From IMG/VR virus record IMGVR_UViG_637000264_000001: a stretch of DNA of 15,993 nucleotides; one strand, written 5' to 3'. The position numbers and the translations under genes are program-made. The notes below the pieces were generated by a model that saw only the letters and a program-made list of their open reading frames with translations, searched no databases and was not told the DNA's origin. The first letter of the stretch is position 1. The number at the start of each line of letters is the position of its first letter. Shown here in pieces: positions 1,632 through 2,553 of this stretch. The DNA comes from a virus. Its lineage: Duplodnaviria; Heunggongvirae; Uroviricota; Caudoviricetes.

Positions 1632-2553
1632 TCAACAAAAACTGGCCACCGAGTTAGAGTTTTTCCAGTATCGATTTTCCGATTCGTTTGGGGGTAACCC
1701 ACCGTTATATTCGTGCGGTCTTAGTGCGCTGTAATATCCAACGATATAGTCCGTTATGGCGTGAGCTGCCTCGCTGAAGCTTACGTAACCCACCACCGGC
1801 ATCCATTCGTTCTTCAGACTCCTGAAGAAGCGTTCCATTGGGCTGTTATCCCAGCAGTTTCCGCGCCGGCTCATACTCTGTCTGATCTGGTATCGCCACA
1901 ATAACTGCCGGAACTGCCTGCTCGTATAATGACTGCCCTGATCGCTGTGGAACATCACCCCGCCGGGCTTACCACGGGTTTCCCATGCCATTTCCAGCGC
2001 TTTCATGGTGAGCCTGCTGTCCGGCGAGAACGACATGGCCCAGCCCACTGGTTTTCTTGCGAACAGGTCGAGAACAACGGCGAGGTACGCCCAGCGCTTA
2101 CCCGTCCAGATATAGGTCACATCACCGCACCACACCTGATTTGGCTCGGTCACCGGCGAACTGCCTTTCAAGGTAGTTAGGGATAGCAACATGTTCATGA
2201 CCACCACGTTTATACCGGCGAGTCGGCTGCTGACAGCTGACCAGCCCCAGCTCTTTCATGAGCCTGCCAGCAAGCCAGCGTCCCATCTGGTAGCCTCTCC
2301 GGGTTGCCATTGTGGCGATGCTTCTTGCTCCGGCCGAACCGTGGCTGATGCCATGTAGCTCAAGTACCTGACTGCGTAATACAGCCCGTCTGCCGTCTGG
2401 TTTTTCAGGACGGTTTTTCCAGTATCTGTAGCTGCTGCGATGAACCCCGAACACATGGCAGAGTGTGACCACAGGATAATGCGCTCTGAGTTTCCCGATT
2501 ATCGAGAACTGTTCAGGGAGTCTGACATCAAGAGCGCGGTAGCCTTTTTTAAT
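1632..2553 (-). pseudogene. IS911 transposase orfB, split across two frames (frameshifted)
   Basis: N-terminal part (track ORF 2122..2472, ...[23 protein letters not shown]) and the conserved catalytic part (track ORF 1632..2207, ...[31 protein letters not shown]...[10 protein letters not shown]...) are in different frames; break near 2153..2157 (ccgg). Confidence 0.7.

Follow-up and report, generated by a model that had tools for sequence, protein, structure and literature searches.

Can an IS911 copy that has kept both of its ends, and that lies in prophage DNA, still make the transposase that would move it? The question is raised by a locus in the IMG/VR virus record IMGVR_UViG_637000264_000001, a Caudoviricetes sequence of 15,993 nucleotides that we refer to, over its whole length, as the window. 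A first-pass annotation, drawn from the sequence alone, had described orfB of this copy as frameshifted, and the copy as probably non-autonomous but still open to mobilisation in trans or to use as a recombination substrate. Following up these proposals, we hold with high confidence that the best explanation is an IS911 element with intact ends that has been made non-autonomous by one extra G (hereafter +G) and that sits at a prophage rearrangement junction. The features of the locus are collected in Table 1 in window coordinates; positions counted along the element itself are given as IS positions.

Table 1. Features of the IS911 copy and of its surroundings in the window (IS, insertion sequence; IRL and IRR, left and right terminal inverted repeats).
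Feature	Position	Strand	Remarks
Full-length IS911 copy	1624..2873	minus	1250 bp, i.e., the 1249-bp type plus one inserted base
IRL	2838..2873	minus	Starts with TGAAGTGGCACAC; same sequence as the IRL of intact copies
orfA	2499..2801	minus	Intact, 100 aa plus stop, HTH_Tnp_1 domain; from ORF list and domain search
OrfB AUU start codon	2551-2553	minus	Read directly from the sequence
A AAA AAG -1 slippery heptamer	2544-2550	minus	Read directly; same in EC28 and pJNE132847
orfB N-terminal fragment (HTH_21 region)	2122..2553	minus	10 out-of-frame residues at the end; TGA at 2122-2124
Lesion: extra G on the coding strand (C on plus)	2153..2154	minus	GG/CC dinucleotide; IS 720/721, OrfAB codon 217; sole alignment gap
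orfB catalytic fragment (rve, rve_3, rve_2; DDE core)	1632..2153	minus	+1 frame relative to the N-terminal fragment; rve E = 1.4e-32
IRR	1624..1659	minus	Ends with ...GTTGACCACTTCA; same sequence as the IRR of intact copies
IRL-side flank: 3' part of P22-like terminase large-subunit gene (terL)	2874..3914	plus	Without nt 1-459
IRR-side flank: 3' part of a small late-region phage gene, HF4s g00059-like	1294..1623	minus	From nt 53
Partial IS2 (InsC/InsD-like orfA and orfB)	1-1285		Runs off the left window edge; ends ...GGGGCAAATCCA at 1285
IS3-family OrfA, 108 aa	15667-15993		Starts just after the last phage ejection gene

IS911, like the IS3 family to which it belongs, moves by copy-out/paste-in transposition. 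When 5,426 complete E. coli genomes were searched with the element by megablast, the full-length matches reached at most 99.0% identity and spanned 1249 or 1248 bp in the E. coli records; PGAP-annotated IS911 copies were among them, with 99.0% identity over the entire length. PGAP names the 99.0%-identical copies 'IS3-like element IS911 family', and the identity is that of an isoform, for which the ISfinder cut-off is roughly 95% or more at the nucleotide level. Three IS911 copies (from EC28, YJ4 and pJNE132847), each annotated by PGAP as one CDS with a 'programmed frameshift', served as the intact comparison set. Read on the minus strand, the window element opens with TGAAGTGGCACAC at 2873 and closes with ...GTTGACCACTTCA at 1624, and it is bounded by imperfect terminal inverted repeats of about 36 bp that start 5'-TGAAGTGG. 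A default inverted-repeat search returned no repeats at the IS911 copy because they are imperfect, and they were placed via alignment. The 36-bp repeat is the sequence bound by the IS911 transposase (PMC2909936).

The gene layout is likewise that of IS911: orfA and orfB lie in frames 0 and -1, their overlap falls at A AAA AAG, and OrfB starts at an AUU. Neither the AUU codon region nor the stimulatory sequence that follows downstream differs from the intact copies. The exact OrfA protein is found on 662 contigs, named as IS911 ORF1 or as a transposase. Over IS 313-654, the window copy matches the pJNE132847 reference base for base, and the only differences listed for the two further references in this interval are at 324 (YJ4) and at 461 (labelled pJNE). 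The remaining differences from the E. coli copies are substitutions, with nine at IS 246-282, one at IS 655 and a few that are private to the references. Rfam at gathering thresholds and a tRNA scan gave no matches anywhere in the window. Sequence identity, the ends and the arrangement of the genes together show window 1624-2873 to be a structurally complete, IS3-family IS911, and the first-pass annotation had correctly listed both terminal repeats, orfA and the A6G/AUU frameshift window, with ends that are the same as those of the intact copies.

The defect comes down to a single base. Where all three intact copies read GCCGTGACC, the window reads GCCGGTGACC, and this 1-bp gap is the only one specific to the window copy. 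Ten copies with an intact orfB were also fetched from Shigella flexneri and S. dysenteriae Sd197, and against these, too, the same gap stands alone. The N-terminal and catalytic segments of orfB do lie in different frames, as had been proposed, and they appear in the list of minus-strand ORFs at 2122-2472 and 1632-2207, respectively; the catalytic frame is open from 2255, and the interval 2125-2207 is what separates the stop codon that ends the N-terminal fragment from the point where the catalytic-frame ORF has its first start codon. The pairwise alignment with the three intact copies likewise bears out the suggested 1-bp insertion and its location: the break had been mapped near a ccgg at 2153..2157, the motif occupies 2153-2156, and the position was right within a base. 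The exact 116-aa N-terminal ORF is annotated as 'IS911 ORF2' in both S. flexneri 301 and S. dysenteriae Sd197. The window copy is a defective member of a very well-known family, not a representative of a different one, and it is an ordinary copy whose split ORFs have been in the annotation since the first S. flexneri genome.

Removal of the G in silico gave a -1 frameshift product of 389 aa, which matched the NCBIfam model NF033516 (transpos_IS3) with E = 4.8e-114 over 368 of its 369 positions, and in which Pfam located HTH_Tnp_1 at residues 1-74, HTH_21 at 142-189 and rve at 218-316, followed by rve_3 and rve_2. In the sequence as it stands, the rve/DDE core (residues 218-376 of the repaired OrfAB) is out of frame with the part carrying the HTH, the leucine zipper and HTH_21, and neither a continuous orfB that joins HTH_21 to the rve core nor a full-length OrfAB is present. 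The actual -1 frameshift product stops at 226 aa, made up of 216 native and 10 out-of-frame residues; it retains the HTH, leucine zipper and HTH_21, and contains no rve. The break sits at the boundary between the DNA-binding/multimerisation part and the catalytic core, one residue before rve.

These features translate into a simple mechanism. The +G at 2153/2154 shifts the frame at OrfAB codon 217, ahead of the DDE (rve) core, while the copy would still be expected to make OrfA (100 aa) and, after -1 frameshifting at A AAA AAG, the truncated OrfAB of 226 aa. As the catalytic domain is absent from this product, the IS911 copy would be unable to catalyse its own transposition and would be non-autonomous. 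We infer from the frame break alone that the +G copy cannot make an active transposase, in agreement with the first-pass judgement of probable non-autonomy. The inserted base also converts CCGTGACCG into a 4-1-4 palindrome, CGGTGACCG, and no longer quasi-palindrome or repeat was found around the site; a mutational hot spot is kept only as weak speculation.

The length of the element could be taken to mean that nothing is broken at all. IS911 as published, our named comparator (IS3 family, OrfA of 100 aa and OrfB of 299 aa, first isolated from S. dysenteriae), is 1250 bp long, exactly as the window copy is, whereas the PGAP-intact copies measure 1249 bp and encode a 389-aa OrfAB; the split frame might then be the normal IS911 arrangement. 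The published OrfAB has 382 aa (PMC2909936). A run of A6 instead of A5 near IS 1209, with no extra G, yields an OrfB of 299 aa ending ...RYWKKL and an OrfAB of this same 382-aa length, as exemplified by the 1250-bp ISEc52 of E. coli Nissle 1917 (L047, NZ_CP022686.1 1522881-1524130). In the N-terminal frame of the window, the last stop before the TAA at 1218 lies at 1167 (IS positions), and the extra base of the reference must therefore fall between 1167 and 1218. The published protein lengths thus point closely to the other extra base, the A6 near 1209, as the probable source of the 1250 bp. One Sd197 copy (L010) has both the A6 run and the extra G and is 1251 bp long.

The frame of the window copy gives a different outcome: its ORF from the AUU ends after 143 codons, and the break parts HTH_21 from rve, two regions that adjoin each other in the IS3-family model NF033516. 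We give virtually no credence to the split frame as the normal arrangement. The 1250-bp length as a sign that the reference shares it is rejected in view of the A6-run form, and the objection anticipated in the first-pass annotation—a reference with the same frame arrangement—falls away, as functional-type copies do not have it. PGAP labels the 1250-bp A6 form 'frameshifted' although it matches the published IS911 protein length. For annotators, the IS911 family thus comprises a 1249-bp form (389-aa OrfAB) and a 1250-bp form (382-aa OrfAB) that are one A apart near the right end, and a length of 1250 bp alone is no proof of a reference-like copy.

Set against the published element, the window copy has the same 36-bp ends, orfA, AUU codon, A6G frameshift window and OrfB sequence. 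Unlike it, the window copy has its orfB interrupted ahead of the DDE core by the extra G at 720/721; its run near 1209 is A5, with a repaired protein of 389 instead of 382 aa; and it has no 3-bp target duplication. Another known case is that of the insN and insO pseudogenes of E. coli K-12, which are defective, chromosomal IS911-family remnants that no longer encode a complete transposase. The K-12 copies are truncated or interrupted by other IS elements, whereas the window copy is full length with a single-base lesion.

A further doubt concerns the reality of the base. The +G site lies midway in a 1.25-kb repeat with about 16 copies per genome, assemblies can mix such copies, and the window copy might really be an intact, autonomous IS911 misread through a sequencing or assembly error. 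A scan for the +G 32-mer in one genome per bacterial species found it in two species-representative genomes (n = 2), S. flexneri SFBU1023 and 'E. coli' ECMA0423, with one match in each, at the window locus. Window 1-6855 is 100% identical to SFBU1023 and window 1-5414 to ECMA0423, in both cases the whole overlap; moreover, the copy in S. flexneri 2a 301 (Sanger, 2002) is 100% identical over the IS and adjoins the same terminase and portal genes. Within these records, the +G allele is fixed at the window locus: S. flexneri assemblies that are independent and separated by many years agree on it. That +G should stem from a sequencing error is very unlikely, because the locus is identical in independent assemblies and because GG is not a long homopolymer; the homopolymer artefact that had been raised as a possible refutation fails on these same two points.

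The assembly of S. flexneri 8401 shows how repeats may mislead. It contains seven near-identical +G copies, and at three loci shared with other S. flexneri assemblies those others are intact, suggesting repeat collapse. We rejected the 8401 copies as a case of spread; the methods of the genome paper are silent on repeat resolution. For the window locus itself, we see hardly any likelihood that the extra base is an error and the copy intact, and we proceed on the reading that the +G is real.

A real +G might still leave the element autonomous if a second recoding event (+1 or -2) took place in the overlap 2122-2255, or if the DNA-binding fragment and a catalytic fragment translated on its own made up a split transposase. 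The catalytic frame does offer candidate starts (GTG at 2207, ATG at 2198 and GTG at 2153), and the Sd197 assembly, in which nine copies are +G and five of these have 3-bp target duplications at distinct loci, could be taken as showing the products of such activity. Against this stand the overlap 2122-2255, in which no recognised slippery or shift-prone motif was seen when the sequence was read by eye, and the S. flexneri genomes, each with one +G copy and no evident spread. The mosaic haplotypes described below indicate, in addition, that gene conversion can move the +G allele without transposition, and the Sd197 pattern comes from a single Sanger assembly. Taken together, we regard continued autonomy as highly improbable, and loss of a self-encoded transposase as the reading to be preferred.

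The Sd197 copies nevertheless deserve a closer look, since they carry the same lesion. In this one Sanger assembly we found 13 IS911 copies or fragments, nine of which are +G; seven of these nine are full length, and five have perfect 3-bp target duplications (GTT, TTG, CAG, AAG and ATC). Among the copies without the extra G, two are broken otherwise, one is 5'-truncated with an intact orfB, and one has an intact orfB by annotation only (ABB60787). The +G copies share with the window copy the same 1-bp insertion and 116-aa truncated ORF, the nearest (L012) being only 3 substitutions away, and their annotation likewise gives split genes, named 'IS911 ORF2', with lengths of 116 and 173 aa. Unlike the window copy, they are nine in number at different loci, fall into at least five SNP haplotypes, include the five with target duplications and, in one case (L010), reach 1251 bp. 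One +G copy with a CAG duplication (L013, CP000034.1 671936-677286) is nested inside an IS911 copy that does not have the extra G.

Sites 708 and 720, only 12 bp apart, show every one of the four possible combinations of their alleles, which points to gene conversion or else to read mixing between repeats in the Sanger assembly. The nine-copy spread, if real, would exceed the expectation for a dead element with a strong cis preference, and gene conversion can explain it. Signs of exchange between copies are also visible in the window. Window 2592-2628 (IS 246-282) has nine substitutions in 37 bp relative to E. coli IS911, with one amino acid change (Glu/Lys, in OrfA); both versions of the tract occur among the Sd197 copies, and it has the appearance of a tract exchanged between IS911 variants by recombination or gene conversion. 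Window 2219 (IS 655), which is A or G, lies 65 bp from the extra G, and both states occur together in several Sd197 copies, which suggests that the IS 655 change and the extra G belong to a shared short tract and are not two independent mutations.

Among 5,426 complete E. coli genomes, the +G allele was found in one, strain FCI29, in an ISEc52 copy 95% identical to IS911 (L036, NZ_CM172720.1 623277-624526) with a CAG/CAG duplication and a PGAP flag as frameshifted. This copy differs from the ISEc52 of Nissle 1917, its closest relative, only by the +G at 720 and by A5 instead of A6, two indel states that also occur in Shigella, with zero substitutions; recurrent mutation and an indel-polishing artefact both fit, and it was not counted as independent evidence for +G. 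PLSDB plasmids yielded no +G allele at up to 1 mismatch in a 120-nt probe, and a metagenome scan for the +G 28-mer gave no matches.

Whether the window copy could move with outside help depends on donors, and these exist. In S. flexneri M90T, plasmid pWR501 has an IS911 whose transposase CDS runs for 1169 nt without interruption, and an intact 279-aa OrfB is annotated several times on the S. flexneri 301 chromosome and on pCP301, with 205 contigs in total. S. flexneri 301 has 16 chromosomal IS911 copies and one on pCP301 (Hawkey et al., PMC7373316). Several intact S. flexneri copies (L040, L041, L042 and L046) match the window copy at all but two positions and have its S. flexneri-type synonymous tract at IS 246-282. 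At IS 655 they carry A, hence His, where the window copy has G and Arg, and the extra G is missing from them, so that orfB is continuous for 279 aa from the annotated GTG. The His form (655A) is the common S. flexneri OrfB; annotations of the Arg form without +G exist for Sd197 (ABB60787) and for a single S. flexneri draft.

The copy thus has the make-up of a non-autonomous derivative, with intact ends, an out-of-frame catalytic domain and intact IS911 copies present both on S. flexneri chromosomes and on the pINV plasmids pCP301 and pWR501, and the presence of these sister copies makes trans-complementation possible. Its 36-bp ends would make it a potential substrate for OrfAB from intact copies, as well as for homologous recombination. 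A review puts the activity of the IS911 transposase in cis at about 200 times that in trans (PMC5009743), and mobilisation in trans would consequently be inefficient. The proposal that the copy can be mobilised in trans therefore stands as far as donors go, with a weak effect to be expected for the +G copy. In S. flexneri, with the 8401 repeats set aside, the +G allele occupies one locus, has no target duplication there and shows no evident movement.

The truncated product might itself act on IS911. A shortened OrfAB[1-149], devoid of the catalytic domain, binds the 36-bp repeats and brings the ends together as a pair; binding by the full-length protein is poor (PMC2909936). By analogy, the 226-aa product could plausibly occupy IS911 ends without cutting them and thus be inhibitory. 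This opens a more ambitious interpretation of the allele, namely that +G marks a persistent, multi-copy defective lineage common to S. flexneri and S. dysenteriae type 1 (9 of about 13 copies in Sd197), spread by gene conversion and/or trans mobilisation, with the 226-aa OrfAB as a dominant-negative damper of IS911 activity in Shigella genomes laden with IS elements—a role it could have because it keeps the end-binding region of OrfAB[1-149] and has no catalytic domain. We consider this interpretation unlikely, if worth keeping in mind, and return to the simpler reading of a non-autonomous copy at a rearrangement junction.

The second half of that reading comes from the flanks. The host DNA of the IS911 copy is a degraded P22-like prophage of S. 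flexneri. On the IRL side, window 2874 corresponds to nt 460 of the 1500-nt terL in an intact E. coli prophage, the phage match beginning at 2871, and downstream of terL come the genes for portal, scaffold, coat and ejection proteins, with about 97% identity to Lederbergvirus phages. The IRR-side flank is 97.6% identical to phage HF4s 38371-38700; in HF4s the gene is co-oriented with the lysis genes, and in the window the fragment is inverted relative to terL and the rest of the prophage. In intact phages, the two flanks are neither contiguous nor co-oriented. IS911 generates a direct target duplication of 3 bp, rarely 4 bp; the bases flanking this copy are TCT and CCT, and no 3-bp duplication is present.

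Given the missing duplication and the non-contiguous, inverted flanks, the IS911 copy marks a rearrangement junction. The missing target duplication fits a rearrangement that took place after insertion, and the mechanism would be either an inversion or deletion mediated by the IS or recombination of one IS911 copy with another. As a recombination substrate, the copy has evidently been put to use before now, since it joins non-contiguous and mutually inverted prophage segments, and the earlier suggestion that it could serve as a recombination substrate turns out to be more than hypothetical. Through the truncation of terL, the junction helped to destroy the P22-like prophage.

Other insertion sequences frame the same remnant. 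The inverted phage gene fragment has its stop codon only 46 bp from the IS2 end at 1285, so that a second IS bounds the same prophage scar. The 108-aa OrfA at 15667-15993 presumably resembles that of IS629/IS1203, and this third IS appears to truncate the prophage on the right, where the tailspike gene is expected. At the orthologous terL junction of S. flexneri 8401 (L021, CP000266.1 240465-246031), IS911 lies in the opposite orientation, with a 9-bp remnant of the IRL tip (GCCACTTCA) between IS911 and terL and a different genomic region as the other flank—an arrangement that could reflect IR-targeted insertion, rearrangement or an assembly problem. The IRR of IS911 carries the -35 box of the junction promoter. 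On the minus strand of window 1606-1635, the IRR sequence TTGACC and an AAGAAT in the flanking phage DNA form an outward sigma-70-like promoter pattern that points into the truncated phage gene; it is a pattern match only, at chance frequency.

The finding matters little beyond correct annotation: the copy is to be recorded as a frameshifted pseudogene with intact ends. The only lead that is even mildly unusual is the possible multi-copy persistence of the +G allele in S. dysenteriae type 1. If true, the spread of one defective allele in that organism would be a modest case of concerted evolution, or of IS self-limitation, during Shigella genome decay.
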